A stretch of 64,000 bases of DNA from an uncultured delta proteobacterium (lineage in GTDB: Bacteria > Desulfobacterota > Desulfomonilia > Desulfomonilales > Desulfomonilaceae): contig CAWBKB010000005.1 of assembly GCA_963789265.1 (NCBI GenBank), positions 736,001 to 800,000 on the forward strand. Direction: 5' to 3'. Within the stretch, counting starts at the first letter, position 1. Every line of letters starts with the position of its first letter. Positions 18,815 through 63,760 of the stretch are shown in pieces. Made by a program: the position numbers and the translations under genes. The notes under the pieces are model-generated. The model was given only the letters and a program-made list of their open reading frames with translations. It was not told the origin of the DNA and ran no database searches.

Positions 18815-19013
18815 GGCCGGTCCGGAATCAACGCGTCAGGCATGGCATTCTAAATCAATTGCCGAAGATTTTCCTGGAGGATAACTCTGGACTCTGTTCC
18901 CGGGGCAGCACCGACTTCCCCGCCGGGGAATGAGCTTTTGGCCGCCTTTCAATGAGTACGAGGGACCGAGTAGGGCGGCCTGTGGCCGTCACTTGCGTCG
19001 GGCATGGCCCGAC

Positions 19014-21587
19014 CTACTCCCGAATCGTAGACCTGGCGTTTCGCCATCTTTCAATGAGCAGCAACAAAGCCGGTAAAGTCACCAAAGTCAGGGGAACTGA
19101 AGCCATCATCCCGATGACCATAGTCCGCCCGAGGAAGTTCAAAGAGGACCGTTGGGAGGTGAGCATCGACACAAAGCCCATTGTAATCGTGAGAGAAGTG
19201 ACCATAGATCTGGGGGTTACTCTGGCTACTGTTCGCGCCACCGAGCCCCCCGCCTCATGAAGGCTCCCCATTACCACATGTATTCCGTTGTGGATCCCAA
19301 AGCCAAAGATCAGAGGGGCAACACATACGATGGAGAAGGGCAACCCCATGTTTGTCAGACTGACAGCCCCTAAAGTGATGCTGAATCCCCCGATCATCGG
19401 AATCAAACAAAGGGCCACCCCGAGGGGATGGGGGAATATCACGAAAAAGACTGCAAGCACCAGCACAAACGCATAAGATCCTAATTTCACCAGCTCAGAC
19501 ACCATTGTGGACAACATGGCTTCCATGGCCTGCCGTGGCCCGGAAATGTCGATCCGTACCGGGAGATGACTCACAGCCGAGAGAATGACCCGGTCGGCTT
19601 TCATAAGTTCGTCAGGGTCCCGAACTCTGTCCGAGAGTCTTACGCGGGTGAGAAACCGGTATTTGCCATGGACTCTGGCGATATACCACGACTTTTCCAG
19701 ATCGGGAACGCCGTCTCCAGCACTCGATCCCCTGAGTTTAAGATTCTCAAGGATCTTGCGGATACCGTCAAACGATCGTGTCATCGTTCTGACCGAGGTT
19801 TTGGACAAATCAGAAGTCTTCAGTTTCGCTTCGAAGTCTGCTCGCAAAGCAGGCAACAATCGGACCACATCGGCAAGGCCGTTGATGTTCGCTTTTCTCA
19901 CCGCGTCCGGAGACAACAGATACGAGATAGAATCAAACGATGCGATTTCACGATGTTTGCCAATTAACTGCTCCAGGACGGTGTCGAGCTTCCTCTGAAT
20001 CGAAAGACCCTTTTGTAAGCTCTCCACATCAAAAGACAACAAAATCGGCTGAGAAAAATTTGAATGAAATCTGCGGGAAATTCGTTCCGACACGGCTACC
20101 GATTTCATACCCCCGGCCAGGAACACCTTGAAAAGGTCCTTTTCGTAAGAGACTCGGGTGGCAGCAACCATGCTCACAAGAATTAAGACGGTTGAAAATG
20201 CCACGATTGCTTTCGGCCGTCTCCGGAACAAGCCGGAAATGATCGCAAAGGAGACTTTAACTCCTGGAAAATAGTCTCTTTCTCGACTTGCCACTATCGA
20301 AAATAATGCCGGCACTAGAAGCAAGGTGGACCCCAGGGTTAGGGCAAGTCCGGTGGCCCCAAAGTAGCCGAATTGCTTGAGCGCGGGCTGCTTCGAAAGG
20401 CACAAGCAAAGGAAGGCAAGCATTCCCGTCAATCCCCCCAAAACAACCGGAGGTCCGGTCTGCGTATACGACTTCTCAAGTGCCTCGATTCTGGAGGAGC
20501 CCCGGTCAAGCTCTTCCCTGATTCGGCCCCATAAATGCTCCCCATATTCGGCGCCTAGACCGAGCAAAATACCTGTGGCCCCCATGACCACCGGATTCAC
20601 CTCGTTATAGCTCAGACAAATGACCCCGTAGCCTTGACCGATGCCCGCTACCAGGGGAGTCATCAGGATAGCGACCGACCAGAAGCTGCGGTAAACGAAC
20701 AGGAGCAGGCTCACTACCAGAGCAAATGAACAAAGGATGATCGTGTTTGTCTCGCGATCGAAAATAGCGTCCGATTCGTACTGAAAGGCAGTCTTTCCGC
20801 TCAGATACCATTCAATATCTCGTGCACTATCCCGAAGGCTCGGAATAGCCTTGGTCAGTTCTGAGATCTTTTCGGGAATTAGTTTATGCAACCGCGTTAT
20901 TAGTTCTTTGTCTCGAACGACGTCTGTGCTCGGGAAGTCCGGGGTGATTTGGACCAAATATAAGGTGCTGTCCGGACTTGCTATTAGTAAATAAGGATCT
21001 CCCAAGTTGAGCGAACCCACCCTTTTTTCCATCGAGCGAGTCACAAATTGACCGACCTCCAGTGGGTCTTCCAGGAGGCGTTCCTGCAACTCGGGGTTTT
21101 CGGTAAGAAAAAGTCGGTTACGGGTGCGTCTAAGCGCGCCGCTTATGCCCTTCAAGCTGAAGATCCGATGGATCTCTTCTCGCTCGCTTGCATTCATACC
21201 AAGCAGGAATCGTCGGAGTAGCTGGGCAGCTTGTTCACGATCATCCGGATCCATAAAGCGGTAACGCACCCTGTGCACCCCGGGGAGTGCAGATATTGAG
21301 TCTGCAAGGCCGCGAATGAACGGCAGGCAACTTTCACCCGGGGGCTCCGGGAACTCTAAGACAAGGATCAACGCATCCTGTTCTCCGAAAATTTTGCTGT
21401 TTTCCACAGTCAGATTTATTCTCGGATCGTCGCGCCCCACCCCGGACATGATATCGCTGCTCACCTTGATAAACGGCAAAGCACCAAAGCCGGCGATAGA
21501 AAGAACCGCGAATGCAGCAATAATCGCACGCGCATGGTTTCGTGAGAACCGGCTAATTTGAAGCAGACCCAGGACTAGGTATCGCAT
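19014..21587 (-). CDS. MMPL/RND-family membrane transporter
   Basis: Two repeats of a TM helix, large soluble loop and about five TM helices; 857 aa. Confidence 0.75.
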   Translation of the reverse strand: MRYLVLGLLQISRFSRNHARAIIAAFAVLSIAGFGALPFIKVSSDIMSGVGRDDPRINLTVENSKIFGEQDALILVLEFPEPPGESCLPFIRGLADSISALPGVHRVRYRFMDPDDREQAAQLLRRFLLGMNASEREEIHRIFSLKGISGALRRTRNRLFLTENPELQERLLEDPLEVGQFVTRSMEKRVGSLNLGDPYLLIASPDSTLYLVQITPDFPSTDVVRDKELITRLHKLIPEKISELTKAIPSLRDSARDIEWYLSGKTAFQYESDAIFDRETNTIILCSFALVVSLLLFVYRSFWSVAILMTPLVAGIGQGYGVICLSYNEVNPVVMGATGILLGLGAEYGEHLWGRIREELDRGSSRIEALEKSYTQTGPPVVLGGLTGMLAFLCLCLSKQPALKQFGYFGATGLALTLGSTLLLVPALFSIVASRERDYFPGVKVSFAIISGLFRRRPKAIVAFSTVLILVSMVAATRVSYEKDLFKVFLAGGMKSVAVSERISRRFHSNFSQPILLSFDVESLQKGLSIQRKLDTVLEQLIGKHREIASFDSISYLLSPDAVRKANINGLADVVRLLPALRADFEAKLKTSDLSKTSVRTMTRSFDGIRKILENLKLRGSSAGDGVPDLEKSWYIARVHGKYRFLTRVRLSDRVRDPDELMKADRVILSAVSHLPVRIDISGPRQAMEAMLSTMVSELVKLGSYAFVLVLAVFFVIFPHPLGVALCLIPMIGGFSITLGAVSLTNMGLPFSIVCVAPLIFGFGIHNGIHVVMGSLHEAGGSVARTVARVTPRSMVTSLTITMGFVSMLTSQRSSLNFLGRTMVIGMMASVPLTLVTLPALLLLIERWRNARSTIRE

Positions 21588-21841
21588 TTGACGTTAGTAC
21601 CAGCTCCTCAAAAATTAGAATAATTAACCAACGGCCATTATGCTCTGTCCGCCTGATCACTCTTTCGGACTAAGGAAGATTTTCGGAGAAATACGTATAT
21701 AATGTTGCGGTCCTATTTTCCAGCCGGTTTCCGGTGCACCATGACCTTCATCCTATGCAAGCGGCGCATCTTTGGCTATTCTGAAACAGAATAAGACGAA
21801 AGAACTTGTTTAGGGAGGTTTTCGTAAATACGGTCGCGGAT

Positions 21842-21880
21842 TTGGGTGCCACTGCCGGCTTGTCCAGCAGTGGCACCCAA
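21842..21880. repeat. Strong GC-rich hairpin (REP-like or terminator-like)
   Basis: TTGGGTGCCACTGC...GCAGTGGCACCCAA, 14 bp perfect arms in a divergent intergenic region. Confidence 0.55.
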
Positions 21881-21959
21881 CCAATGGCGATTACCCCCAC
21901 ACGAACTGGTATTTCGTGTAACCGTATTTAAGAAATAGAGTAATTAGGGAGGATACGTC

Positions 21960-22469
21960 ATGAAAGCGGACGAGGTTCTGCGCAAAGAATTGTTGGCACT
22001 TTTGGACGGACGAAACGCCCACATGAGCTTCGATGATGCGATTGGAGACTTTCCACTTGAACACATCAACAGTAAGGCCCCGTTGACGCCGTATTCCTTC
22101 TGGCATTTTGTCGAGCACATCCGCATTGCCCAGTGGGACATCCTGGAGTTCATCCGAAATCCGAATCATATCTCCCCGCCGTATCCCGAAGGATACCGCC
22201 CGCAACCGGAGCAGCGTACCGACGAAATAGGCTGGCAGAAGAGTATCGAAGAGATGCGGGCCGACTTGGAAGCGTTGAGGGAAATTGTTCGTGACGACAA
22301 AATCGACTTATTTGCACCTATCCCGCATGCGCGGTCATATAACATATTCCGTGAGATTGTCCTCGCGGCTGACCATAACGCCTATCACGTCGGTGAATTG
22401 GCGATTATGCGCCAGGTGATGGATATTTGGCCTGCCGACCGGAAATACTTGACCGGCAAGCCGGATTAA
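21960..22469 (+). CDS. DinB-superfamily protein
   Basis: EHIRIAQWDILEF and ADHNAYHVGE His motifs; GGAGG SD. Confidence 0.8.
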   Translation: MKADEVLRKELLALLDGRNAHMSFDDAIGDFPLEHINSKAPLTPYSFWHFVEHIRIAQWDILEFIRNPNHISPPYPEGYRPQPEQRTDEIGWQKSIEEMRADLEALREIVRDDKIDLFAPIPHARSYNIFREIVLAADHNAYHVGELAIMRQVMDIWPADRKYLTGKPD

Positions 22470-22627
22470 TGGGTGAAACGGGCCGCCGAGTCTCCCAGGC
22501 ACCCGGACCTGACCTACTCTAGCGCACGCTCCAGGGCTCTGACATCGGATGAGCGGAAAATGTGTCGATTTCCTCAGTTCGTGTTGTCAACAGTCCGCGC
22601 GAATGCGACAATTTTCGAGGCGCCGTG

Positions 22628-22876
22628 CTAGGGCACGCCAGGAAGTAGAAACATGTCCAGTTCTCCATCGCGCGCGGCTTCGTTCATACCAAGGCTCGAT
22701 TCAGACTGAGCGCCCGCGCCGGACGGACATGTTACCTTGGTTTTTGAAACATCGTCCGTCTCGGAGGACGATCGAGCAGACATGGCTCGGGACACGGCGA
22801 AGATCATGGATGCAACGACGATTGCGGTGAGCAAGAGCGGAATCAAATCTGAAAGCATTGTGGTTCGTATTTTCAT
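22628..22876 (-). CDS. Small hypothetical protein with N-terminal hydrophobic helix
   Basis: AAGGA SD; signal/TM segment followed by a short soluble tail. Confidence 0.4.
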   Translation of the reverse strand: MKIRTTMLSDLIPLLLTAIVVASMIFAVSRAMSARSSSETDDVSKTKVTCPSGAGAQSESSLGMNEAARDGELDMFLLPGVP

Positions 22877-22986
22877 GGAATCCTTCCTACAGCTTTGGAA
22901 CCCCTAAAGTCAATTACTCGTCTCATGACATGATTCCGCGAAAAAAGTTCCCGAACGTAATCATCCAGTTGCGAGCGGTGAAAGAT

Positions 22987-23119
22987 TGTCATTGCGAGCG
23001 AAGCGATGCAATCTCTTCCTTTAAATCCCACTCAGATTGCCAGTGGGACGGGCATCTTGCCCGTCGTCCATAATGGACAGGCAGGATGCCTGTCCCACTA
23101 TTTGCTCCTCGCAATGACA
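22987..23119. repeat. Composite REP-like element with one REP family nested in another
   Basis: Outer TGTCATTGCGAGCGAAGCGATGCAATCTC...GATTGC/CTCCTCGCAATGACA; inner AGTGGGACGGGCATCTTGCCCGTC...GACAGGCAGGATGCCTGTCCCACT at 23042-23099. Confidence 0.75.
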
Positions 23120-23164
23120 GAGGTTCGACAATTCCCCCGCGTGAGTGAACCATTACTCCCAAAC

Positions 23165-23365
23165 TTATTTCGTGGGAGGCGAAGGATCTTCGAGCCCGAC
23201 AACGTTGCCCAAATTGATTCGCAGCATTTCCACCGAGGCGAGTATACGTTTGGCATTTCGGTTGATGGCGGGGAAATCCGCCGAACCGTCGTACAACTCC
23301 TGCGCGATCCGGCCAAGCTGCTCCACTCCTGAAGACATACGGTCAAGATCGGGACGTGTGGACAT
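23165..23365 (-). CDS. Small hypothetical protein (66 aa) coupled to the CoA ligase gene
   Basis: GGAGG SD overlapping the end of the upstream gene; 3 bp gap. Confidence 0.6.
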   Translation of the reverse strand: MSTRPDLDRMSSGVEQLGRIAQELYDGSADFPAINRNAKRILASVEMLRINLGNVVGLEDPSPPTK

Positions 23366-23368
23366 GAT

Positions 23369-24709
23369 CTAGTTCCCTCCCTTTTTTCTAAGATCCTTAA
23401 ATCGCCTGGCTTTTACCTCGTATCGAGGGAGCGTGCCAAAGTCGTGAATCTGGATCTCATACCCAAGGTTAGTCTTCACACGTAGCTCGGTAAGGAGCTT
23501 GGCTTTAAGCTCCTCTTTCGACGAACTCGCGCCGGCGGCCAGCTCTATCTTGAGTAGGATATGATCGATATCGCCTCTCTTCTCGACCACCACCTCATAT
23601 TCGTCAGCGATTCCCGGCATGGACCGCACCACATCTTCTATCGCCGAGGGGGCCAAAAGAACGCCTTTGACTTTGGTTATATCATCGGCTCGGCCGGTTA
23701 CGCCTCCGGGCACAACCCGGTACGCGCGGCCGCACTCGCATGGTTCATCGCTGAATTGCAAAATGTCCTTAGAGTCGAAACGGACACACGGCTGAGCGTA
23801 ACGGTCCAGGGCGGTGATCACGAGTTTGCCCGGTTGCCCGGCTTCTGTGATCGGATCTCCGGTGTCGAGGTCTTCCAATTCCGCAAGAAACATCGCTTCG
23901 TTAACATGCAACCCGCCAGGTTGGCACGAACATTCAAAACCCCAGGCCCCGATCTCCGTTGCGCCCGCATGATCGAACACTTTGGCGCCCCACGCCTGTT
24001 CCATTCGCTTTTTGGTGCCTGGCACAAGAGCACCGGGTTCGCCAGCGCAAGTGATCTTTCTCACGTCCAGATCGGTGGCCGGATTCAATGACATCTTGTT
24101 GGCCGCATCCGCCATGCCCAGGACATAAGTGGGGGTGGCCATCATAGCGGTGGCTTTTAGTTCCTGCATCTTCAGGATTCGCGATTTGGTGTCGAGCACG
24201 CCGCCGGGCACCGTTTCGCAACCGATTTTTTCGCACGCGTAATGCCCCGCCCAGAATGCAACAAAGATGTTGTAACCGAAAGGAAGGAATACTCGATCGT
24301 GAGGCCGGTATCCTTGTGCCCAAAGCAAAGTAGCCCAACACTCGGACCACCAGTCCCAATCTTGCCAGGTATCAGGTTGGTAAATCGGTTGGCCGGTTGT
24401 TCCGCTTGTCTGCCGAAACTCCGTGACCTCATCCAGTGGAACGCACAGTGCGTCTCCATAAGGAAACGGGTCCTTGCGCTGGACCGACCGCATCATGGAC
24501 TTTTCGACTTTGGGGACCCGCCGCACGTCATCCATGGTCCGAATATCGTCCGGCTTCAATCCTGCCTTGTCGTACATGGCCCGATGAAAACGGGACCGGT
24601 CATAAGCCCATTTGAGAATGCGTTGGAACTTCTTCAGCTTTAATTTCTCCAGTTCTTCACGGGGAAGCGTTTCCAGATACGGATTCCAATAAGGTACGCT
24701 TTTGTCCAT
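23369..24709 (-). CDS. Phenylacetate--CoA ligase family protein (PaaK-like)
   Basis: TSGTTG P-loop, AGEPG, GATE, GRADD, C-terminal KARRFKD. Confidence 0.88.
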   Translation of the reverse strand: MDKSVPYWNPYLETLPREELEKLKLKKFQRILKWAYDRSRFHRAMYDKAGLKPDDIRTMDDVRRVPKVEKSMMRSVQRKDPFPYGDALCVPLDEVTEFRQTSGTTGQPIYQPDTWQDWDWWSECWATLLWAQGYRPHDRVFLPFGYNIFVAFWAGHYACEKIGCETVPGGVLDTKSRILKMQELKATAMMATPTYVLGMADAANKMSLNPATDLDVRKITCAGEPGALVPGTKKRMEQAWGAKVFDHAGATEIGAWGFECSCQPGGLHVNEAMFLAELEDLDTGDPITEAGQPGKLVITALDRYAQPCVRFDSKDILQFSDEPCECGRAYRVVPGGVTGRADDITKVKGVLLAPSAIEDVVRSMPGIADEYEVVVEKRGDIDHILLKIELAAGASSSKEELKAKLLTELRVKTNLGYEIQIHDFGTLPRYEVKARRFKDLRKKGGN

Positions 24710-25000
24710 GCAGCTCTCCTTAAGCGGTCGTTATGGGAGTTTCGGGGCTGAGGGGTGTTCTTTGAAGCTCCCTTGTCCTGCAGGCGGATAACAGGATTGC
24801 AGCTAGTGTATCATCATCACCAGCGAAAGTGTGGGGAAAATCAGCTCTTACGTGATTGGTACCCGCCGGAAAGCAATGCTTGCCCGGAAACAGATATAGT
24901 ATTATCAAGCCCGAACGGCTATAGCAACTATACAAATTCTTGCCTGAATTGCCGCGCGCTTCACAGGCTATCCGGCTCTCACGCCCCTCCTGAAAGCCGG

Positions 25001-25061
25001 CGGTAGGACAGGCATCCAGCCTGTCATTTAAGCAACGACAGGCTGGAAGCCTGTCCCACCG
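25001..25061. repeat. REP-like inverted repeat (GACAGGC..GCCTGTC family)
   Basis: CGGTAGGACAGGCATCCAGCCTGTC...GACAGGCTGGAAGCCTGTCCCACCG; same family as the inner element at 23042-23099. Confidence 0.7.
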
Positions 25062-25156
25062 AGCCCAAACATGTCACTTAATCTGCCCAGCGAAGCAGTT
25101 AATGCCGTCAGCCTCACAATTTATGCTATCCTTCTACACCATAACAGGAGACAAGA

Positions 25157-25825
25157 ATGAGCAAGTTAATTAAAGATAATCTCTGGCAAGTGGGGGGCAG
25201 CGAGCTGACTGGTCCCGGGGATGCCGCTATCTATCTCGTGCGCTTTGGCGACAAAGCCGCGCTTATTGATGCCGGTTGCGGGCAGGATCATGCCCGATTG
25301 AGAAAAAATATTGCAGAATGCCTGCCGCGGGATGTGCAACTCGAATATCTTCTGCTGACCCACTGTCACTTCGATCACACCGGAGGGGCCGAAGCAGTGA
25401 GAAACGAATTCGGCTGCCGTATCGTGGCCCATGAGCTGGACGCGGTCTACCTCGAATCCGGTGACAGTGAAGTGACCGCAGCATCCTGGTATGGCTCTAA
25501 GTTCAAACCGTTGACAATTGACCTCAAACTTCACGGCGCGGAGTCTACCCTCGGAGTCGGCAGTGGTACGATTACGGCTATACACTGGCCTGGTCACTCC
25601 CCGGGCTCAATGGTGTATACTACTCACATTGACGACGAACTCGTGCTCTTCGGGCAAGACGTCCACGGTCCGATTCACCCGGCCCTGTTATCTGATGAGA
25701 GGCAGTATCAGGCTTCTTTGGCCAAGCTCTTGGCCCTGGACGCGGATCTTCTCCTGGAAGGGCATTTCGGCATATTTCGGACAAAGGAAAAGGTCAGAGA
25801 ATTCATCCAGTCTTTTATGAAATAG
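25157..25825 (+). CDS. Metallo-beta-lactamase fold hydrolase
   Basis: THCHFDHTGG, PGHSPG, EGH motifs. Confidence 0.9.
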   Translation: MSKLIKDNLWQVGGSELTGPGDAAIYLVRFGDKAALIDAGCGQDHARLRKNIAECLPRDVQLEYLLLTHCHFDHTGGAEAVRNEFGCRIVAHELDAVYLESGDSEVTAASWYGSKFKPLTIDLKLHGAESTLGVGSGTITAIHWPGHSPGSMVYTTHIDDELVLFGQDVHGPIHPALLSDERQYQASLAKLLALDADLLLEGHFGIFRTKEKVREFIQSFMK

Positions 25826-25914
25826 AGGATTGTCCAAGAGACAGCCAGGTGGCTCCAACAGGAACGAGCCTCAACCTGGAGTGAAGAACCAGGAATGAAC
25901 AAAACGACCAATAG

Positions 25915-26071
25915 TTCACCGCGGAGATCGCCGAGAACGCGGAGACCAGACACGGCAAATTTCGGTTTTTGACAGCAAAAGAAATACCGACCCGACTGTA
26001 CGCACCGATAACTCATACGGAAATGAATGAGCAATTACCCTCTCTGCGATCTCAGCGCACTCCGCGGTGAA
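25915..26071. repeat. REP-like inverted repeat pair (CACCGCGGAG family)
   Basis: TTCACCGCGGAGATCGCCGAGAACGCGGAGA (25915-25945) and TCTCTGCGATCTCAGCGCACTCCGCGGTGAA (26041-26071) are inverted copies. Confidence 0.65.
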
Positions 26072-26101
26072 TCTCCCATTGTCCGTTGAAGGGTCACAAA
26101 A

Positions 26102-26906
26102 ATGATTCAACTTAAAAATGCCATGGAAATCTTCAAGATACTGCCAAGAACCAATTGCCGGGACTGCCGCGTTCCAACGTGCCTGGCCTTTGCCGCCGCG
26201 GTGTTCAAGGATGATAAACGCCTGACCGATTGCCCTCATTTAGACGGAACCGTTTCTGGAGGTGCTCAGCGTTCAGAACTCCGATTCCAGGACGTTGGAA
26301 CGTGAAGAGAAGCAAATGCTCGCACAGTTGAGAGGAAAAGTCGGGAGCCTGGATCTCGCTTCTTCCACGGATAGGTTGCAAGGCGCGTTTTCTGGCCTAA
26401 CACTGACGGTGAAGATGCTCGGAAAGGACTTCCATGTCGATTCCCAGGGGAACATCACGTCTGACAGCCACGTGCACGGATGGGTCACAGTACCGCTCCT
26501 CAACTATGTAATATCTTGCGTGGGCCTGCCCGTGTCAGGAAACTGGGTTCCCATGCGTGAACTCAAGAACGGCGCCATCTGGGCCCCGCTTTTCGGGCAG
26601 CGCTGTGAAAAGCCATTAAAGCAGGTGGCGGACACTCATACGGATCTGTTTGAGTTCATGGTTCAGGTCTTTAGCGCAAAACCTGCACCCAATGCTTTTG
26701 ATTCAGACATTGCGGTGGTTTTGCACCCCCTGCCCAGAGTGCCCATGCTTATATGTTACTGGAAGCCGGACGGCAGCATCGAATCATCGCTAAACGTCTT
26801 CTTCGACGACAGTGCTGAAGAGAACCTGGGCGCTGATTCACTCTACAGGATTGCCACCGGCATGGTGATGATGTTTGAGAAGATCGCGATCACGCATGGG
26901 AAATGA
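26102..26906 (+). CDS. Fe-S-cluster domain + DUF3786 protein, one frameshift near 26260
   Basis: N-terminal LPRTNCRDCRVPTCLAFA...CPHL; C-terminal PLPRVPMLICYW...SSLNVFFD. Confidence 0.75.
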
Positions 26907-27349
26907 GGCACGGCCCTAGAAAGCTGCTGCGCAAGCTTGTCACCAGCGGGACCCTCCCGAATTCGTCGCGCCATGGTGCCTGGTGTGTCGACATATCTGA
27001 GAGGCTGCAAAGCAAAACGGCTTAGCAGGTCATACTGTTATAAGCCTGGGGCGCAATAGAGCAGAGGACGGACTTTCAGCGCAGCACTTCAAGTAGCGTA
27101 TGAGAGTGTTTAGATGTTGCCGCCTCCCACAGAAAGTAAGACGCGAAGGGGCCGAAGCTTCGGTACAAAAGGGGTCTATCTTGTGCTGCGCACACGCCCG
27201 TAAAGGGGAAATCCTTGATGATAGGAGGAATGGCTCTCAAACGGCGGCCTCTATTGACCATAATTTCGTGTTGCCGAAACAGCTTGACAAGCCCGACGAC
27301 CTAGATTAACAGGTCGCGTGGGAGAATGCGCTCTTCGGCGGAGGGAGGT

Positions 27350-28801
27350 ATGGGGTTTCTGCTGCCAGAATGGGAGATGGAATGGATCCTTGTCAACAAT
27401 CCCGCCCTTTTAGATCCTGGATCTGAAATTCTTAACCTCGAAGTAGTTGCCCAACAGTACGATTTGCCCCGGAGCGGAGGGTATGTGGACATCCTGTGCC
27501 GTTTCCCAGAGGGCTTGTTGGCAGTGGAACTGAAGAATGAATTTGTCGACGATTCCTCTGTTATCACACACCAGCTCAACAAGTATCTCGCGGACCTGTT
27601 GCACTACTCCAATAATTCCGAAGAAGTGAGATGTTTACTTGTCTCCACTCACGGGTTTTCACGACAGGTACAAGAGCTGGCCACTGCTCGTTCAGTGAGG
27701 TTGCAGACCATCTCTGTCGAGAACTTGCTCGAACAGGCCTGGCGTCTGAATACATCTGCGGATACTCTGTCGTCGGCAAAGGCGCGGCTTTTGCAGCGGC
27801 GTGTTGGATTGAAAACTTTGGACAAGGCCAAGGAACTCGTCTGCGGAAGACCTGATGCACGGTATCAACGGGATGTGGCCAGCATCGATCACTTCATAAG
27901 TTCCGGCAAGCACGACGCGTACGGATTGCGGCAGCTCGCTCGCGGTTTGAAGGAAGTGAGTCGTCGAGCCCCCATCATGGCACACAAAGTGTTCGATGAA
28001 GACGACGGAAATACCCTTAGTGGGGAGGAAGAAAAGTGGTTTTGGTTCTTCTATAGCGTGCTTGATAGACGAGCGAACGCTGCAACCTTCGTTAAGGCGA
28101 AAGAGGCACTTGAACGATGTAGACTTTTCCTGCCCCAAGAGCTCGTCCGGCTCGTGGAAACTACTTCGAATGCGGATGCAGTGGACCGCGTCTTTAGAAT
28201 TTTGCGAGATAGTGAGTTTCCTCTTGCCGCTGATTCTATCAGGCGCGACCAAGCCATGCCTTCGAGCATTGTGGATGCAGCTATGTATTTGAGCCGATTC
28301 GAGTTTTCGATGGACAATATGTTAGAATATTTTACTCAGGCCCTTTCCAGGTCCGAAGACTTAGCCGACACAATCATGGCACACTTGAGGAAGCACGTTT
28401 ATGGCGTAGGTCCGAGGATTGCGGCGCAGATCGTCCGAGGCTTGTGCCTCAAATCGGGCTGGAAGGTGACCATGTCTTCCCCGGTTCATCTGGAACAGTG
28501 CGGGTTTAACGAAACTTTCGCCGGCCCCGGCCGGTTAGGTCTCGTGTCCTCGCCGCAGAGTTACCGGAGGGAGCTGAAGCGTTTTGCGGACTCGTATCTC
28601 GGAGGGAACTGCGGTGTAATTAGCCATGCGCTCTGGTTCATCCGGAAGAGATTTTGTCTTCGGCCGAAGCGCTGTGATGAGTGCCCCGTGGCTGGCTTCT
28701 GCAATTATACTCGTTCTATGCTGCTGCGAAGCTACGACCGTAAGATGCTTGGCGCCCAACCCTCGTTGTTTTCGCGTATGGAGGAGGCCGTTCCAACCTG
28801 A
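27350..28801 (+). CDS. NucS/RecB-type PD-(D/E)XK nuclease fused to an HhH-GPD/endonuclease III-like domain with a [4Fe-4S] motif
   Basis: N-term E...GYVDIL...AVELK...QLNKY. C-term helix-hairpin-helix HVYGVGPRIA and C-x5-C-x2-C-x5-C (CLRPKRCDECPVAGFC). Start taken at the ATG after GGAGGGAGGT. Confidence 0.7.
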   Translation: MGFLLPEWEMEWILVNNPALLDPGSEILNLEVVAQQYDLPRSGGYVDILCRFPEGLLAVELKNEFVDDSSVITHQLNKYLADLLHYSNNSEEVRCLLVSTHGFSRQVQELATARSVRLQTISVENLLEQAWRLNTSADTLSSAKARLLQRRVGLKTLDKAKELVCGRPDARYQRDVASIDHFISSGKHDAYGLRQLARGLKEVSRRAPIMAHKVFDEDDGNTLSGEEEKWFWFFYSVLDRRANAATFVKAKEALERCRLFLPQELVRLVETTSNADAVDRVFRILRDSEFPLAADSIRRDQAMPSSIVDAAMYLSRFEFSMDNMLEYFTQALSRSEDLADTIMAHLRKHVYGVGPRIAAQIVRGLCLKSGWKVTMSSPVHLEQCGFNETFAGPGRLGLVSSPQSYRRELKRFADSYLGGNCGVISHALWFIRKRFCLRPKRCDECPVAGFCNYTRSMLLRSYDRKMLGAQPSLFSRMEEAVPT

Positions 28802-30441
28802 TGGTCAAAAGAAGTCATCTAGACCGGGTACGAATTCTTGTCTTGTCAGACCTCCACTACGCAACTGACACTGGCAAATGGGAGGAAGTCTTTGCCACGG
28901 AGGGGACAAGGGAAACCGCTGCATACTCCTTCACCAACATTGAGCGCCTTCTCGGATTCATACTCAATGTGGTGAAAAGGGAATTGGACCACGTTATCAT
29001 ATTGGGAGATCTAACGCTTTTAGGCTCCCGAGACGACTTCAAGTTAGCCAAGGAGGACCTCCTCCGGTTTCAGGAGGAGCTCAAGAATGAAGGGATTACC
29101 ATAAACGCAGCCGAGGGAGAATTGGATCCCGCGATGTTCACTATCATCCCTGGCAACCACGATTTGAATGAGCCTACCGTCGGCAAGTGGACGCGCCGGC
29201 GGAGGATGGTAACTGGAGGTATGAGATCATTAATCAGCCGCGTCACGAAAAAGCCGATTGTGGCACCTCCGTCCAGCCCCGAAAAGATGTCGGAACTACT
29301 ACAGCTTTTCCGCGAATATTTTGGTGAAACCCTCTGGGATCGAAACCAGGAATCCAAGCAGTTTGGGAGTCTTGAGAAGATATTGCGCCATACTAACGTG
29401 TCACTCGTCCCATTAAATAGTTGTGTTCCGGCGCCAGTGCATCTTTTAGGAATAAACGCTCGTGGCCGAATAGATCAAGATCAAAGAGTGAAATATACAG
29501 AGTTGGGGCGCAATGGAAATGGCTCACGGCTCCGTATCGCTCTTGCCCATCATTTTCCACTTCCTATTCCGGTAAAACGCGATTCATTAACGGAGCCATC
29601 CCTGGAACTTGAAGATGCCAGTGACGTCATCCACTCTTTATACGGAGGTGCAAAATTCGCTGCTTTTTTGTGCGGACACAAGCACTCGGATTTCATTTGG
29701 TGCAACATCGCAGGAGTGCCGAAGGTAGACCGCTGTATGCCAATAATCTGTGTCGGTACGACTACCTTTCAGGCACCTCACCGAGATCACATTTGCTGCC
29801 TGATCGAATTGGAAGGTCGCAACAAGCTCAAGTTCAGCGATGAAAACACTTTGATCAAGGTCCACCATTATGAGTCCAGGAAACTTGCTGCCTCCCTCGT
29901 GAATACATTCGAGTTCTCGCCTGAGCCGGGCACACATAAAGAATTCACTAGTCTGACGGCCAGATGGATCAGAGAGGTGGAGAAAGCACCCGGGAGTAAG
30001 ATAAAACTCATAGACTTCAGATCTGAAGAATCCTGGAAGTTACTCAAGCCACTGCATCAAGAAACTGAGGCTGCAAGGCTGGAATTCAGTCGCTGGGGGA
30101 CTGTCTTCTACGGAGACACTCAAGGAGCGATTGAGGATTTTGAAATATTAGTAGGTGGCGAGTATCGTAAGGGTCCAATTTGCCTCATTTTCTCATGTAG
30201 GGCGCGGGATGGAGAGCCTGAACTAAAGATAAGCTGCAAAGAAAGTTCTAATCCAATGACTGATTTTGAATCGGTGTCACAAAACGAGTTTAGAAAAAAC
30301 TTCTTTCTGAATTATATTTCCCCGGATACCAAGCTACTGGTTTCTTTTAGATCAAGTCGTCTTGCCGAGGTGGTGCTCCATTGTGTCCTTGTTCTTGAAT
30401 TTCCCATAGTACGGTCGGAGACAGCCTATGACAATGCCTGA
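28801..30441 (+). CDS. Calcineurin-like metallophosphoesterase with an unknown C-terminal domain
   Basis: All five motifs present: SDLH, GDLT, GNHD, HH, GHKH; start overlaps the upstream stop (TGATG). Confidence 0.8.
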   Translation: MVKRSHLDRVRILVLSDLHYATDTGKWEEVFATEGTRETAAYSFTNIERLLGFILNVVKRELDHVIILGDLTLLGSRDDFKLAKEDLLRFQEELKNEGITINAAEGELDPAMFTIIPGNHDLNEPTVGKWTRRRRMVTGGMRSLISRVTKKPIVAPPSSPEKMSELLQLFREYFGETLWDRNQESKQFGSLEKILRHTNVSLVPLNSCVPAPVHLLGINARGRIDQDQRVKYTELGRNGNGSRLRIALAHHFPLPIPVKRDSLTEPSLELEDASDVIHSLYGGAKFAAFLCGHKHSDFIWCNIAGVPKVDRCMPIICVGTTTFQAPHRDHICCLIELEGRNKLKFSDENTLIKVHHYESRKLAASLVNTFEFSPEPGTHKEFTSLTARWIREVEKAPGSKIKLIDFRSEESWKLLKPLHQETEAARLEFSRWGTVFYGDTQGAIEDFEILVGGEYRKGPICLIFSCRARDGEPELKISCKESSNPMTDFESVSQNEFRKNFFLNYISPDTKLLVSFRSSRLAEVVLHCVLVLEFPIVRSETAYDNA

Positions 30442-31483
30442 ACAGCCAGTTTATGCACCTGAGGAAGGTTTAGCGCCATTTGCGGGAAACACGATTACCG
30501 AAGTCTATAACACGCTCAAGAGATTTTTTGAAAATAAGAAAGATGCTACGGTATTGCACGTTCTCACCCTCGTCCGGTCTCCAGAATATCTTGTCCCGGA
30601 TGAACAGGTTATTTCTGCTCAAGAGGTTAAGGACGCCGTGCGCGGCCTCACTGATCAACCAGAACGAGAACAGTTCAAATTCAATCACTGGGATAGGATT
30701 TCGAGCTTTGGAAGACCTTTTTACAAAGTTGATCAGTTTGAAAACGCGGGAAAAGCTCTCTGCGAAGAATTAGAGAATAGGGAAGCAAGGACGTCGGCGA
30801 GTGCAGCGTTTGTAGTGACCGACCCTCTAAAAGACCTTGCCTCTAGGGATAGTGACACGCCGCCTCCATTTTTTTGCATGGGTCAATTTTGGCTAGACCA
30901 CCTAGGTCGGCTGGGGATAACGGGCGTTTATAGGCGGCAGGAGATGTCTTCATGGTGGGTTGTAAATATCTGGGAACTCGCCACTTACAGGGACAGGATG
31001 TGTGAGTACCTGAAGAGCTGTGGCTTCCAGGTCAGGGAGGGATCTGTGGCTACTCTGGCCGTTTTGGCTTACTGGCGAAGCAAGAAAAAATCTCCGGTTC
31101 CACTTCCCGATTTTGACAGACCCGAATTACGCGGCCAGATAGGGTCTTCATTGCTAGCGACCTTCGATGGTGACAGTGCGGCCGCCGGATCGTTGGAAAA
31201 GATGCTTCGGGAAAAGGCCAAAACGATAACAAAAAGCAATGCTCCGAGAGGTGGCCTCAAAACCTTGTTGGATCTTCTGTCTGCGGTCGAGTCGTATTTC
31301 AAGATGAAAAATGAGGAAATCTTTTATGAGCTGTTCCGTCAAGTGAAGGAAGCGGATCAGTATCATTCGCAATTCTCGCAGCCAGTCTTTCGAGCCATAA
31401 CAGTGGATAGCCTTGCCCAGTGTTACGAGAAACTAGCTGATACGTTCGAGACCCTCAAAGGAAAACTTGAGCAACAGCAATGA
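30428..31483 (+). CDS. Divergent thymidylate synthase/dNMP hydroxymethylase-fold protein
   Basis: PFFCMGQFW...RLGITGVYRRQEMSSWWVVN aligns by eye to the ThyA core PCHAFFQFY...[20 protein letters not shown], with R, D/E and N at identical spacing. Confidence 0.55.
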   Translation: MTMPEQPVYAPEEGLAPFAGNTITEVYNTLKRFFENKKDATVLHVLTLVRSPEYLVPDEQVISAQEVKDAVRGLTDQPEREQFKFNHWDRISSFGRPFYKVDQFENAGKALCEELENREARTSASAAFVVTDPLKDLASRDSDTPPPFFCMGQFWLDHLGRLGITGVYRRQEMSSWWVVNIWELATYRDRMCEYLKSCGFQVREGSVATLAVLAYWRSKKKSPVPLPDFDRPELRGQIGSSLLATFDGDSAAAGSLEKMLREKAKTITKSNAPRGGLKTLLDLLSAVESYFKMKNEEIFYELFRQVKEADQYHSQFSQPVFRAITVDSLAQCYEKLADTFETLKGKLEQQQ

Positions 31484-31520
31484 ACGTGAACAATATTGTA
31501 GAATGGTCATGGGAGGAAAA

Positions 31521-32612
31521 ATGGAAAAAACAACCATGCCCTTCGCGCGTGAACTGAAATTGGAGCTCACAAATGCGTGCGGCTTGGCCTGCGCCCATTG
31601 CTCGACAGATTCCGGTTCCACTGCATCTCTTTGCATTCCTACGGCTGATGCAATTCGAATAGTGTGCCAGTTTCGGGAGCTAGGTGGTGAGCGGCTCATT
31701 TTGACCGGTGGTGAGCCGCTTCAACATCCCGAGATTGATCTCATTGCTGCTTTTTCAAAGCAAATAGGTCTTCAAGTCGTGGTATATACGACCGGACTTG
31801 ATATCAATTCGGACGTATCCAGGGACAGACTGCTACACCTGGCCCCAATCATAGATGGATTTGTCTTCTGCCTACATGCCGCTGTACCTGATGTGCACGA
31901 CCACCTTACAGGGGTGCGTGGCAGTTTTGAAGCTACTGTTTCCGCCATCAGCCTTGTAATGAGATGGGGTAAGCCCGTCTGCATTCATCACGTACCACTT
32001 CAACCAAATCGGGGCGAGTTTCTTTCGTTGTGTACCTTTGTTATGAGGATGGGGTTGCGCTCTCTGAAGATACTAAGATTCGTCCCCCAAGGACGCGGCG
32101 AAAGAAACGAGGCGAGACTCGCCCTGCGTTGGTTGGACGTAGACAAGTTAGCCGAAGAAATCGCTATGGCCCTTGTTCGTTTTCCAGCCTTGAACATCGA
32201 CCTCGGTGCCCCCTATTCGATGTTAGGCCCTTGCCGCCAGACACTCTGCGGTGCGGGTTGGAGAACGTTGTCCATAGGTGCAAATTTGGAATGTTATCCT
32301 TGTGATGGCTTCAAGTCGATTGCAGGTGGAGCATTTAGAGAACCGCTCGCAAGTCGGGCTCTTCAAGTATTCTGGACTGAGTCGGCAACCCTGTTATCGG
32401 TCCGCAGCGCCGCCACTCGAATGCAAATGCTGGGAAGCACGGGTTGTCTTGCGCAGAAGTTTTTAGCTAACGGTGATTTTTATGGAGTGGAAGAAGACCC
32501 GCTGACAACTTACTTTAGTCAAGATTTCCGCCAGGCCGTTTCTCACCAGGCCAAAGTAATGACCACTTATTTGCCGCTAGCGGGCTTACGGCCCCCAGAT
32601 TTTTCAGGTTAG
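31521..32612 (+). CDS. Radical SAM protein with SPASM/twitch domain
   Basis: ELTNACGLACAHC (CxxxCxxC), LTGGEPL, CGAG...YPC. Start uncertain (31467-31536). Confidence 0.85.
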   Translation: MEKTTMPFARELKLELTNACGLACAHCSTDSGSTASLCIPTADAIRIVCQFRELGGERLILTGGEPLQHPEIDLIAAFSKQIGLQVVVYTTGLDINSDVSRDRLLHLAPIIDGFVFCLHAAVPDVHDHLTGVRGSFEATVSAISLVMRWGKPVCIHHVPLQPNRGEFLSLCTFVMRMGLRSLKILRFVPQGRGERNEARLALRWLDVDKLAEEIAMALVRFPALNIDLGAPYSMLGPCRQTLCGAGWRTLSIGANLECYPCDGFKSIAGGAFREPLASRALQVFWTESATLLSVRSAATRMQMLGSTGCLAQKFLANGDFYGVEEDPLTTYFSQDFRQAVSHQAKVMTTYLPLAGLRPPDFSG

Positions 32613-32861
32613 GCAAGGACTGAAATGGGCCTGCCGCTGACTATCGAAACACGCCAATTGGAGGTTGTGGCTCAGTAGGAGTCCTTATACGTTCTGCAAG
32701 CCTGACTTTGGACCAGTTCCTTGCCGCAATGAAAAACGTCTTATAAGAATTTCACCTTATCTTTTGCCATCTCCGGCAACTGGTCCCATTAGCCCATATA
32801 GCGTGTTACGAATGATGCAGTTCCCTGCGGCTCGCGAGGTCATGACATTTTCGAGCTTAGG

Positions 32862-33122
32862 CTAACCATTATTGTGAAAGCCACTGGCAGTTTTCAGCAT
32901 TTCTTCTTTGGCGGCCATAAGAACGCCCTCACCTGCAAGGAGGCTCTGAGAGTCTTGTTCCGCGGTGACCTGCTTGAAGGTTTGGGTGTAGTAGTGGAGA
33001 GGTCCCAAGAGACTCAGAAGAGTGAGAAGCGCAATATTCCTCCAACTAAGAAAGGCTTGGACATCGAATCTGTTGTCCAGAATGGCCTGTGCCACATTTA
33101 TGAGACTATTCAGGTATTCCAT
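32862..33122 (-). CDS. Hypothetical protein (86 aa)
   Basis: GGAGG SD before MEYLNSLIN; plausible helical protein. Confidence 0.6.
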   Translation of the reverse strand: MEYLNSLINVAQAILDNRFDVQAFLSWRNIALLTLLSLLGPLHYYTQTFKQVTAEQDSQSLLAGEGVLMAAKEEMLKTASGFHNNG

Positions 33123-33335
33123 TCTGCCTCCTTCCTTCGACTTGAGACGACAGCGAGATCCTGCAAAAGTTCCATACTTGTTAGGACAGACGTCTATAAG
33201 CGAAATAGAGTTCAAAATCTTCATAGCGAGTCCAATACTCTGAGCCTCGATGACACAAATGTTTACGGTAGCTCTGCCAACAAGATAGATTTGTGTAATG
33301 CCAAGGATTTTTCTTGCCTCCTACCGAATAGAATA

Positions 33336-33351
33336 AGCAACCACCATGCCA
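33336..33351 (-). promoter_or_regulatory. Possible sigma54 promoter
   Basis: Minus strand TGGCATGGTGGTTGCT (GG-N10-GC), ~215 bp upstream of the 33122 ATG. Confidence 0.45.
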
Positions 33352-33850
33352 AACTGATATCTATCTAATTTCAACGGCGATTACGCCAATACACAGTTAA
33401 GAGATGGGGAAGATGGCTAGCATTTCGCAAGACTACGCGAGCATGATTCTTGCGATTTGCAAGGTGCAACAGGGCATAGCGATACAATGAAGCCGCGAAT
33501 TCCGGGGACACCATACTCAATTGCCCTCTCTTCGGTTTTTTCCGGTCCTATCCCGGCCCTGTATTTGGGATTTCTCGTCTGCTCCATGGATTGGCTCCAG
33601 GAAACGGCCGCTCACACGCGAACCGAACCGCCTGGGCCCTCTTCCAAGGCGTAATGCTCGGGAACGCCCGTTTCGGGGCTTGTCCCTCTCCGCCGGTATG
33701 TATGCAAGCAACGCGGGCGGAAAAAGCCTTCGATTCCTCCGATCTGCGATATGCCCCTAAGCGTTCTTGTCAATCCCAAGATGTTCCGGCATAGTATGTG
33801 CGTTTACATTCTCTTGCTACGATACGGAAAGAAATCGAGCTTAATACAAC

Positions 33851-34675
33851 ATGGAACACACACAGACGTTCTCATTCGGCCGCAACTGGCAAACATTCCT
33901 GAGAAGCTTTGATGAAGAAAGGCTCAAGATTGCTGAATTGTCCCTTATGGAATTCCTTAATATGCCCAACCTGCGCGGACGGAGTTTTCTGGATGTCGGA
34001 TGCGGCAGCGGGCTGTTTTCTTATGCAGCCTTCAAGCTCGGGGCGAAAAGTATTGTGAGTTTCGATTTGGACCCGTTCAGTGTGGAATGTTGCAAATATC
34101 TGTGTGAGAGGGCGAACAATCCGCCACATTGGAAGGTCTGTGAAGGTTCGGCACTGGACACGGATTTTCTCTCACGATTGGGGAACTTTGATATTGTGTA
34201 TTCGTGGGGAGTGCTCCATCACACCGGGAAAATGTGGAATGCGATCGAAAGGACAGCCGGCCTCGTTAACCCTGGAGGCTACTATTACATTGCTCTCTAC
34301 AACAAGATCCTGGCGAGAAACGGTTCCGCCTCGTGGGTACACCCATTTTGGTTGAAGGTCAAAACTCTGTACAATACATATCCGTTCCTGGGAAACTATA
34401 TCCTGGAACCATTGGCCATGGCAGCTTATCTTGCAATTGTTGTTGCTCGTGGTGAAAATCCAATCACGCACATCCGCAACTACAAGTCCCATCGCGGCAT
34501 GAGCTGGCGTACAGACGCTACAGACTGGCTTGGCGGCTACCCTTATGAATTCGCCACGGTGGAAGAGGTCTTCAAGTTTGTGAAAGGTAAATTCACGGAT
34601 TTCAACCTAATCAATATAAAGGTCACGAGCGGCCGAGGCCTGAACTGGTATCTGTTCCAGAGATCATCCGCATAG
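33851..34675 (+). CDS. Class I SAM-dependent methyltransferase
   Basis: FLDVGCGSG, FDIVYSWGVLHHTG. Confidence 0.88.
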   Translation: MEHTQTFSFGRNWQTFLRSFDEERLKIAELSLMEFLNMPNLRGRSFLDVGCGSGLFSYAAFKLGAKSIVSFDLDPFSVECCKYLCERANNPPHWKVCEGSALDTDFLSRLGNFDIVYSWGVLHHTGKMWNAIERTAGLVNPGGYYYIALYNKILARNGSASWVHPFWLKVKTLYNTYPFLGNYILEPLAMAAYLAIVVARGENPITHIRNYKSHRGMSWRTDATDWLGGYPYEFATVEEVFKFVKGKFTDFNLINIKVTSGRGLNWYLFQRSSA

Positions 34676-63735: not shown

Positions 63736-63760
63736 CCAACGGTTCTAGCTGACTAATAGC

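Follow-up and report, generated by a model that had tools for sequence, protein, structure and literature searches.

The 64,000-nt stretch of DNA analysed here (the window: contig CAWBKB010000005.1, positions 736,001 to 800,000, from an uncultured delta proteobacterium of the family Desulfomonilaceae) carries a four-gene operon whose products, p1 to p4, are a nuclease fused to a helix-hairpin-helix (HhH) domain with a predicted iron-sulphur (Fe-S) site, a metallophosphoesterase, what appears to be a very divergent protein of the thymidylate synthase (ThyA) fold, and a radical S-adenosylmethionine (SAM) enzyme. An original prediction, made from the letters of the window, had described these genes as a candidate defence operon linked to nucleotide or DNA modification. 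The chances are about even that they form a strain-specific accessory conflict operon, most likely anti-phage or anti-plasmid, that acts via a modified pyrimidine. The operon appears to be a rare version of a large module family that was found named nowhere and that is built on one radical SAM family. The folds and catalytic motifs of the proteins, the linkage of their families, and the presence or absence of the genes as compared to the nearest relative are established by the observations described below; a defence role and the mark-dependent cleavage of DNA by p1 are what we infer.

A coupled four-gene operon

The four open reading frames (ORFs) are co-oriented on the + strand, at 27326-28801 (p1), 28801-30441 (p2), 30428-31483 (p3) and 31467-32612 (p4), and the tight junctions noted in the original prediction are real. 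The p1 and p2 genes meet in TGATG at 28799-28803, where one base is common to stop and start. The p3 gene then overlaps p2 by 14 nt (30428-30441), its ATG at 30428, with GGAG 7 nt upstream, lying ahead of the p2 TGA at 30439-30441. The p3 stop (31481-31483) is followed by GGGAGGAAAAATG and then by an ATG at 31521 behind GGGAGG, which is most likely the start of p4 because it yields the 363-aa form present in the protein database as P0002; where the original prediction had left a short gap or overlap, a 37-nt gap is thus likelier than the 17-nt overlap that the alternative TTG start at 31467 would give. Similarly, p1 most likely starts at 27350 rather than at 27326, since the ATG at 27350 is directly preceded by GGAGGGAGG and the alignment of the p1 family starts at about residue 10-12 of the longer frame. 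The residue numbers of p1 used here are those of this longer 491-aa frame, counted from 27326. The leader upstream of the operon (26915-27349) contains no + strand ORF of at least 80 aa, no sigma-70-like site was scored in it by a promoter scan, and an Rfam scan of 26000-34000 matched no family. At the other end, a hairpin at 32582-32594 is followed by a T-run, although terminator-like sites are no commoner here than in shuffled sequences. The features are collected in Table 1.

Table 1. Operon genes and edges of the surrounding block in the window
Feature	Position	Strand	Basis or remark
Left edge of the accessory block and non-coding leader upstream of the operon	26915..27349	+	Collinearity with G401, the nearest relative, stops at 26914
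p1: NucS-type PD-(D/E)XK nuclease, helical linker, endonuclease III-like HhH domain	27350..28801	+	
p2: calcineurin-like metallophosphoesterase	28801..30441	+	Pfam Metallophos
p3: probable, very divergent thymidylate-synthase-fold protein	30428..31483	+	TIGR03283 below cut-off; hhalign to c2
p4: radical SAM enzyme, SPASM/twitch-like C-terminal part	31521..32612	+	Pfam Radical_SAM; alternative TTG start at 31467
Right edge: weak terminator-like hairpin where p4 ends; the next 70 nt are common with G401	32582..32680	+	

Folds and catalytic motifs of the four proteins

The first protein, p1, is composed of a nuclease domain (about residues 14-132) and an endonuclease III-like HhH domain with a cysteine loop (about 196-467), which are connected by a helical linker. 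An AlphaFold2 model built on an alignment of 15 sequences (mean predicted local distance difference test score, pLDDT, 87.4; predicted template modelling score, pTM, 0.82) was compared with about 48,000 solved chains by VIA-align. Residues 14-132 superpose on residues 126-233 of the NucS chain 2vld_B (Z 15.6, root-mean-square deviation (rmsd) 1.7, 107 residues), and residues 196-467 on endonuclease III 2abk_A (Z 14.9, rmsd 3.2, 207 of 211 residues). Foldseek returned the same two families (EndoMS, E 3.9e-4; MutY/EndoIII, E about 1e-2). Sequence models agree at a lower level: the NCBIfam NucS model NF003270 matches p1 with E 6.9e-7, under its cut-off and over model positions 130-223 of 250 only, and the EndIII Fe-S motif was seen in 10 of the 15 members of the p1 family, with a best E of 4.7e-5. 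On the other hand, p1 has no Pfam HhH-GPD match, hhalign of the p1 family with an HhH-GPD protein of the same genome was not significant, a profile search of p1 against solved structures gave chance-level matches only, and a fold search of BFVD gave none at E <= 0.001.

The family alignment of p1 shows invariant D55, E68, K70, Q83, G360, G362, R364, E390, N395 and C459, with C450 and C453 kept in at least 90% of members. Indeed, the nuclease domain retains the D...ExK...Q motif of NucS/EndoMS, from which p1 differs as it misses the N-terminal DNA-binding and dimerisation domain. The HhH-GPD fold and the C-terminal loop of four cysteines (C-x5-C-x2-C-x5-C, the last three conserved), a predicted Fe-S site, recall endonuclease III and MutY, but here the domain is fused to a nuclease and its HhH motif, GVGPR at 360-364, ends in an invariant arginine, with the invariant Glu390 28 residues past G362. 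R364 and E390 presumably correspond to Lys120 and Asp138 of endonuclease III. Homologues of p1 amount to 43 representatives at E <= 0.001 among 1.84 billion proteins.

The second protein matches Pfam Metallophos (PF00149) at E 2e-7 and 32.1 bits, above the cut-off of 21.5, over residues 11-296 approximately, while the C-terminal half of about 250 residues matches no family in the Pfam and NCBIfam scans. Calcineurin-like phosphoesterases bind metals through the motifs DxH, GD, GNHD, H and GHxH. All of these are present in p2 and are invariant in the four sequences available (D17, H19, G69, D70, G118-N119-H120-D121, H250, H251, G292-H293-K294-H295). Its best named relative is the anti-phage phosphoesterase DS9_1 (NF053862; E 5.9e-18, with 65 bits where the cut-off is 420), followed by a weak match to DS-8 (E 0.0011). 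Besides a fragment of p2 itself, three homologues were found. A prediction of the complex of p2 with p3 scored 0.00, which gives no verdict either way.

The third protein comprises a core (about residues 53-220) and a helical C-terminal extension. It has no Pfam match, and it matches the model of the archaeal short thymidylate synthase, TIGR03283, with E 1.2e-5 and 25 bits (cut-off 174.55). Its relatives make the case firmer that p3 is a very divergent ThyA-fold protein that keeps what is probably the catalytic cysteine: hhalign to c2, a family of ThyA-like proteins found beside p4 relatives (31 members), gave a probability of 92% and E 6.5e-7, with Cys150 and Asn180 of p3 aligned to the invariant Cys and Asn of c2. 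C150, R169, E172 and N180 are also conserved between p3 and its homologue P0001, and presumably represent the catalytic Cys and the pyrimidine-holding Arg...Asp/Glu...Asn of ThyA. P0001 (39% identity) was the one homologue recovered by a word-based search of 5.77 billion clustered proteins; 20 relatives and the 400 other genomes of a phylum sample were all without a match, and pattern scans of genome, metagenome and viral contigs with p3 and P0001 recovered no relative. Profile searches of p3 and of c2 against solved structures gave chance-level matches only.

The genome also carries a second short ThyA-like gene (239 aa; G000:C3:571985-572704, equal to L093:9985-10704, - strand), just below the Pfam cut-off, which is probably the housekeeping short-form enzyme. 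No canonical ThyA above the cut-off was found in this genome; of 41 genomes from the phylum sample, 16 give matches, which are weak and of the short form only. Hhalign of the 239-aa protein was not significant with p3 and weak with c2 (E 8e-4, probability 24%).

The fourth protein matches Pfam Radical_SAM (PF04055) above its cut-off (E 1.1e-10). Among NCBIfam models it is nearest to SPASM-type families, far below every cut-off, the best being TIGR04053 (E 1.4e-22, 80.5 bits, cut-off 395). A CX3CX2C cluster motif (C20, C24, C27), a GGE SAM motif (G63-G64-E65) and four further cysteines (C117, C243, C261, C309) are invariant in nine of nine sequences. Among 8000 candidates scored, 869 matched p4, and a small close clade stands at 35-51% identity. 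In a quick maximum-likelihood tree, p4 falls in a supported clade of eight with P0004-P0010, separate both from the archaeal clade that accompanies p1 relatives and from the majority with ThyA-like and UDG-like (uracil-DNA glycosylase-like) partners. The assignment of p4 as a prokaryotic viperin was considered and rejected: the match to PADLOC pVip (E 4.9e-10, residues 33-124 against model positions 8-99 of 262) covers the shared N-terminal radical SAM core only.

All four fold calls of the original prediction stand, p1 through both motif and fold matches as a NucS-type PD-(D/E)XK nuclease joined to an endonuclease III-like domain, p2 and p4 through Pfam matches above cut-off, and p3 through the TIGR03283 match below cut-off together with the profile alignment to c2.

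An accessory block at a variable site

The nearest relative, a genome of the same genus (G401, locus L114) whose flank proteins are 90-96% identical, is collinear with window positions 17794-26914 and shares DNA with it again at 32611-32680 (L114:5307-5376 matches window 32680-32611 at 80% identity). Between these points lie 5.7 kb in this genome (26915-32610) but about 280 nt in G401. None of the 12 other genomes of the same family contains a full-length match to p1, and the G+C content falls to 0.46-0.48 at 29.5-31.5 kb as compared to 0.52-0.56 in the flanks. The insertion between housekeeping-type genes that had been proposed is borne out: on the left lie genes for MMPL, AMP-ligase, metallo-beta-lactamase-fold (MBL) hydrolase and DUF3786 proteins, on the right those for a methyltransferase, a RimO/MiaB-like protein, LolA, an ABC ATPase and cysteinyl-tRNA synthetase (CysRS). 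Given its absence from G401, the lack of a full-length p1 match in the family genomes, the dip in G+C content and the ordinary flanks, we regard the block as accessory and its site as variable, but not as a recognisable defence island. Indeed, the expected co-location with a defence island was not upheld at this locus, where the flanks are housekeeping and no defence gene adjoins; neither an integrase, nor a tRNA, nor flanking direct repeats were found at the block.

No match to p1, p3, p4 or a member of c2 was found among 50,697 phage records, scans of viral contigs with the p4-clade and p1 alignments gave generic radical SAM core matches or none, and plasmids yielded distant p4 relatives only, at 28% identity or less, two of which were looked at.

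Past 32680 a larger rearrangement separates the two genomes. The DNA of G401 continues as window 61465-64000, so that a synteny break of about 29 kb (32680-61465) coincides with the operon point. Beside DUF3786, the G401 site carries a B12-binding radical SAM gene (L114:3786-5264). The 1.2 kb between the operon and the methyltransferase gene (32612-33850) contains just two mutually overlapping ORFs that match no family, 32862-33224 (-) and 32874-33368 (+), and the corresponding place in the nearest relative holds other DNA. The class I methyltransferase (33851-34675) matches PADLOC mad2 (MADS) with E 3.7e-16 over the methyltransferase core only, probably a generic similarity, outside the operon.

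Linkage of the families in other genomes

A scan with the p1 alignment, covering one genome per species, recovered ten loci, all archaeal (Bathyarchaeota, Methanoperedens, Thermoplasmata, Heimdallarchaeota and Sifarchaeum). In eight of them a p4 relative (E 1e-28 to 6e-36) lies within 3.4 kb of the p1 relative. A dCTP-deaminase-like gene with an N-terminal extension directly adjoins the radical SAM gene in seven of these eight, and in the eighth, from Heimdallarchaeota, an Nmad3 gene is found there instead. A further conserved protein that matches no family is present in five of the eight; the archaeal family c12, considered as a ThyA-like candidate, was rejected (hhalign probability 1.5%). 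The p1 relative at L006:1949-4242 has no radical SAM neighbour; it stands immediately behind PriS-like and primase-associated genes, a setting suggestive of a mobile element.

The p2 and p3 families are likewise connected. In particular, L034:7402-9624 encodes one 740-aa protein in which a Metallophos/DS9_1-like part (E 9.4e-26) is joined to a ThyA-like part (TIGR03283, E 1.4e-11), the latter matching p3 in blastp with E 4e-16 and 29% identity over 175 residues. Upstream of this fusion gene stands a complete DS-4-like set that has a radical SAM gene of its own, and behind the fusion gene follows a short radical-SAM-like ORF of 248 aa. In addition, the p3-like P0001 and the p4-like P0004 (51% identity) each come from a 3111-nt contig, and the p2-like P0166 and the p4-like P0005 (50% identity) each from a 5008-nt contig, which we infer to be one shared contig for each pair. 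What recurs are thus pairs and one fusion; the conserved four-gene order that had been expected in other genomes is unconfirmed.

Because p1 and p4 relatives adjoin in eight of ten loci, p2-like and p3-like parts occur as one fused protein, and the segment 26915-32610 is a single insertion or deletion, the four-gene arrangement exceeds chance.

A widespread radical SAM module

A metagenome scan with the close p4 clade recovered 474 relatives, and the best 80 of them, at 28-35% identity, were kept for the analysis of neighbours. ORFs lying up to 4.5 kb from the radical SAM gene were clustered, and representatives were scanned against Pfam and NCBIfam (Table 2).

Table 2. Gene families near the p4 relative in 80 metagenome loci (the best of 474)
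Neighbour	Loci	Description
c1	44/80	UDG-family-4-like protein fused to a SocA/Panacea domain
c2	41/80	ThyA-like, about 247 aa, TIGR03283 E 2e-7
dCTP-deaminase-like	21/80	dCTP deaminase/dUTPase fold
Nmad2	15/80	Nucleotide modification associated domain 2
TIR/NDT-like	13/80	TIR-like or nucleoside deoxyribosyltransferase (NDT)-like
ImmA-type peptidase	12/80	Regulator; helix-turn-helix (HTH) partner in 6 loci
Nucleotide kinase with 5-hydroxymethyldeoxyuridine (5-hmdU) DNA kinase domain	11/80	Fused kinase
Nmad3	2/80	Nucleotide modification associated domain 3

The commonest gene order is ThyA-like, radical SAM, UDG-like. When the count is restricted to the 31 loci that have 1.5 kb or more on each side, a ThyA-like or dCTP-deaminase-like gene is found in 25 and a UDG-family-4-like gene in 22, with both in 19 and neither in three; Nmad2 is present in ten and the 5-hmdU DNA kinase in three. 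No p1 relative occurs in the 80 loci. The constant theme is one radical SAM family accompanied by a pyrimidine-nucleotide-binding enzyme and a DNA-glycosylase-fold protein. Two unrelated glycosylase folds, UDG-like in one case and HhH joined to a nuclease in the other, fill the same slot, and this therefore points to a step of the module in which a base in DNA is handled. Thus, the link to pyrimidine modification made in the original prediction is strengthened by the ThyA-like, dCTP-deaminase-like, 5-hmdU DNA kinase, Nmad2 or Nmad3, and glycosylase-fold neighbours of the p4 family.

The commonest partner of the radical SAM gene, c1, is spread over loci L012-L091 (for example, L027:2042-2967). 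Panacea is an antitoxin domain, and its fusion to the UDG-like protein hints at toxin-antitoxin-like control. Known defence genes are also found nearby: of 148 non-module neighbour proteins, one taken per cluster, 22 from 15 loci gave PADLOC matches at E <= 1e-10. Among the systems matched are Shedu, Lamassu, Thoeris, Ssp, IetAS, Gabija-like helicase, PDC-S02 and PDC-S19. The figure describes co-location and not statistical enrichment. The neighbours of the wider family further include ImmA/HTH regulators, a relaxase and an integrase. Parts of the DS-4 type adjoin the radical SAM gene in loci such as L034, L038 and L061 and in a record of Parabacteroides distasonis beside an integrase. This last locus (L135; NZ_OY725812.1 45648-50806) reads hypothetical, TIR-domain, hypothetical, nucleotide-kinase-domain, radical SAM and 521-aa hypothetical genes; its annotation gives generic labels for the TIR, nucleotide kinase and radical SAM genes, calls the others hypothetical, and names no system. 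In the literature, no module of ThyA-like, radical SAM and glycosylase-fold proteins was found described, and the 2013 base-modification paper of Iyer et al. may hold one.

Proposed mode of action and alternatives

Thymidylate synthases and dUMP hydroxymethylases activate C5 of the pyrimidine by means of an active-site cysteine. On this model, p2 would supply or trim a (deoxy)uridine-type nucleotide, the conserved Cys150 of p3 would attack C6 so that a one-carbon unit is added at C5, and p4 would tailor the new C5 substituent further. The endonuclease III-like domain of p1 would then flip the modified base out, and its NucS-type nuclease would cut the DNA. In the preferred order of events, the altered nucleotide would enter the DNA that replicates fastest, presumably that of an invader, and p1 would then destroy the marked DNA; this order is preferred because the enzymes resemble those of a nucleotide pool and neither a kinase nor a transferase that would act on DNA is present, although the evidence fits a mark on invader DNA as well as one on the cell's own DNA. 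In its full form, a mark-and-cut immunity with new radical chemistry, the proposal is tentative, and we consider it a good deal less probable than the general reading as a conflict operon: p3 and p4 would together produce a hitherto undescribed C5-modified deoxyuridine nucleotide, a glycosylase-fold partner, here fused to a nuclease, would recognise this base in replicating invader DNA and destroy that DNA, and the hundreds of ThyA-like/radical SAM/UDG-like modules of environmental bacteria and archaea would work likewise.

Several observations weigh against a conflict operon of this kind. No locus with all four genes was recovered elsewhere, and two of the ten p1-relative loci lack a radical SAM gene, namely L006 (with 4-5 kb on each side) and L009 (with 648 nt upstream). 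In the tree, p4 lies outside the clade of archaeal radical SAM genes that adjoin p1 relatives, and the pairing of p1 with p4 may for this reason have arisen more than once, or by shuffling. The tie of p3 to ThyA consists of sub-threshold matches to hidden Markov models (HMMs) and one profile-profile match, and its AlphaFold2 model, built on a two-row alignment, is poor (pLDDT 52). In p1, R364 seems to occupy the position of the catalytic lysine of endonuclease III. Neither a 5-hmdU DNA kinase (PF18723) nor Nmad2 (PF18753) was found in this genome, which is 95.6% complete, the control genomes being also without a match to either. The neighbour counts of the wider family include many short contigs. 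At the window locus itself the surroundings are housekeeping, with no integrase, flanking repeat or neighbouring defence gene. The archaeal loci next to hisS keep their synteny among closely related Methanoperedens genomes, which is compatible with a stable role on the chromosome as well.

The alternative that survives best, itself doubtful and to be taken as seriously as the detailed mark-and-cut proposal, is self-marking of the restriction-modification or Dpd type, in which p2-p4 would make a precursor, the HhH domain of p1 would install it in the cell's own DNA through base exchange or substitution, like the HhH-fold aGPT-Pplases on phage DNA, and the nuclease would cut DNA without the mark. 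Indeed, the enzyme that performs the DNA-level transfer in phage thymidine hypermodification has an HhH glycosylase-like fold, according to the parts of the two reports cited here (PMC8989533, PMC5889632). The radical SAM family is accompanied most constantly by a glycosylase-fold protein (22 of the 31 well-flanked metagenome loci and 8 of 10 p1 loci), and the invariant arginine that seems to take the position of the Schiff-base lysine would fit a chemistry other than that of a lyase. However, none of the 15 p1-family members matches the aGPT-Pplase Pfam models at E <= 1. At the level of fold, p1 does have the HhH fold, and the nearest solved chains among the matches listed are repair glycosylases, with no aGPT-Pplase structure among them. 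Furthermore, no kinase that would activate a 5-hydroxymethyl group was found in this genome, and in the nearest relative, which lacks the block, nothing visibly replaces it.

A role in DNA repair or in the sanitation of the nucleotide pool of anaerobes is unlikely. Here p1 would remove damaged pyrimidines, the radical SAM enzyme would reverse a lesion as spore photoproduct lyase does, and the other enzymes would clean the pool. The nearest matches of the two p1 domains are enzymes of repair, NucS/EndoMS for one and endonuclease III/MutY for the other, and both the archaeal loci, beside hisS and other ordinary genes, and the window have unremarkable chromosomal neighbours. Against this, the distribution is patchy, the block being absent from all 12 of the other family genomes searched, the difference from the nearest relative is a clean insertion or deletion, the wider family is accompanied by regulators, mobility genes and known defence genes, and p4 is SPASM-like and not of the photoproduct-lyase kind.

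Enzymes of the thymidylate synthase fold, radical SAM enzymes and phosphoesterases occur in nucleoside-antibiotic pathways. It is therefore conceivable, and slightly less probable still than a repair role, that the product is a diffusible modified nucleoside or nucleotide, antibiotic-like or a signal, for which p1 would provide self-protection or to which it would be unrelated as a DNA enzyme; family scans revealed no evident DNA-binding domain in p2, p3 or p4. However, the block lacks genes for a transporter, a resistance pump or further tailoring, the glycosylase-fold partner occurs too regularly for a bystander, and the family neighbourhoods include enzymes acting at the DNA level, such as the 5-hmdU DNA kinase. 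The patchy distribution and the constant DNA-enzyme partner thus make both the repair and the small-molecule readings weaker.

Finally, chance neighbourhood or an assembly error is very improbable: the exact set is unseen elsewhere and the estimated contamination of the assembly is 6%, but the junctions are translationally coupled, the families are linked in independent genomes, and the flanks are collinear with G401 on the left and over 70 nt on the right.

Relation to known systems

None of the models of PADLOC-DB 2.0.0 matched p1-p4 at the level of a member, and to this extent the statement of the original prediction that the combination is not a named system holds. In particular, the operon belongs to none of DS-4, DS-9, pVip and the phage hypermodification clusters, even though its components recall several of them.

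DS-4, DS-8 and DS-9 of DefensePredictor were validated against phages in E. coli in 2026, and in the cited part of that report DS-4 (NTTI in Table S8) consists of a thymidylate synthase, a deoxynucleoside monophosphate (dNMP) kinase, a 5-hmdU kinase domain protein, an NDT-like protein and Nmad2 (PMC13092281). As listed in that source, DS-4 is a multi-gene cellular set of enzymes for pyrimidine nucleotides, and its first gene encodes a protein of the thymidylate synthase fold, to which p3 is tied by matches below cut-off and by the alignment to c2. Kinase with 5-hmdU kinase domain, NDT/TIR-like and Nmad2 genes adjoin p4 relatives in metagenome loci such as L034, L038 and L061. However, a Pfam scan found neither a dNMP kinase nor a 5-hmdU DNA kinase gene in the operon or its neighbours, and no NDT-like or Nmad2 gene in the operon, whereas genes for radical SAM, phosphoesterase, nuclease or glycosylase-fold proteins are lacking from DS-4 as listed. 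For DS-8 and DS-9 the same source states that defence needs the catalytic residues of the metallophosphatase, and it presents systems with aGPT-Pplase, NMAD, UDG and dUTPase domains as predictions only (PMC13092281). The phosphoesterase domain of p2 is homologous to DS-9A, the metallophosphatase that is paired with a HAD phosphatase in DS-9, DS-8 being a metallophosphatase-NACHT protein. Nevertheless, its score, far under the equivalog cut-off of DS9_1, places p2 in a separate protein family, its C-terminal half is unrelated to any family, and there is no HAD or NACHT partner (no HAD match in p1-p4 or in the flanking ORFs).

Phage thymidine hypermodification, as described in the cited parts of the literature, relies on a ThyA homologue, a 5-hmdU DNA kinase, a transferase of the HhH glycosylase fold and sometimes a radical SAM enzyme (PMC5889632, PMC8989533). 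The clusters of phages M6, ViI, SP10 and PhiW-14 have parts of the same classes as the operon, namely a ThyA homologue (there a dUMP hydroxymethylase), an HhH glycosylase-fold protein acting on DNA and a radical SAM enzyme, which in the phages work on the substituent at C5 of uracil. They differ, in those descriptions, in being phage-encoded and in needing the 5-hmdU DNA kinase, as compared to a chromosomal operon in a genome where this kinase was not found, and also in that the phage radical SAM enzyme is of the spore-photoproduct-lyase type and the phage aGPT-Pplase carries no nuclease.

The modification-dependent (type IV) restriction enzymes MspJI and AspBHI also join a PD-(D/E)XK nuclease to a base-flipping reader, and both are among the fold matches of p1, but the reader of MspJI is SRA-like and has no homology to that of p1. 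In the Dpd 7-deazaguanine system, a nucleotide-derived base is made in part by a radical SAM enzyme and is handled in DNA by a glycosylase-type enzyme; no Dpd genes are present here. All in all, the general kind of system has had a precedent since DS-4, DS-8 and DS-9, and the operon looks like a rare version of a widespread gene kit.

Significance

That gene sets for thymidine modification of the phage style, when present in cellular genomes, can protect E. coli has only just been shown, with DS-4, in the cited part of the DefensePredictor report (PMC13092281). To such sets the operon and its larger family add a dedicated radical SAM enzyme and an interchangeable partner of the DNA-glycosylase fold, which in this operon brings its own nuclease, and this could expose the mechanism. 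If the proposed reading is wrong, the family remains a widespread uncharacterised radical SAM module with clear partners. If it is true, it would mean a new enzymatic reaction on pyrimidine nucleotides, a new reader and nuclease for a modified base that is possibly a useful tool, and a defence principle common to bacteria and archaea. The operon is a new extension of the recently opened class of nucleotide-modification-linked defence candidates.

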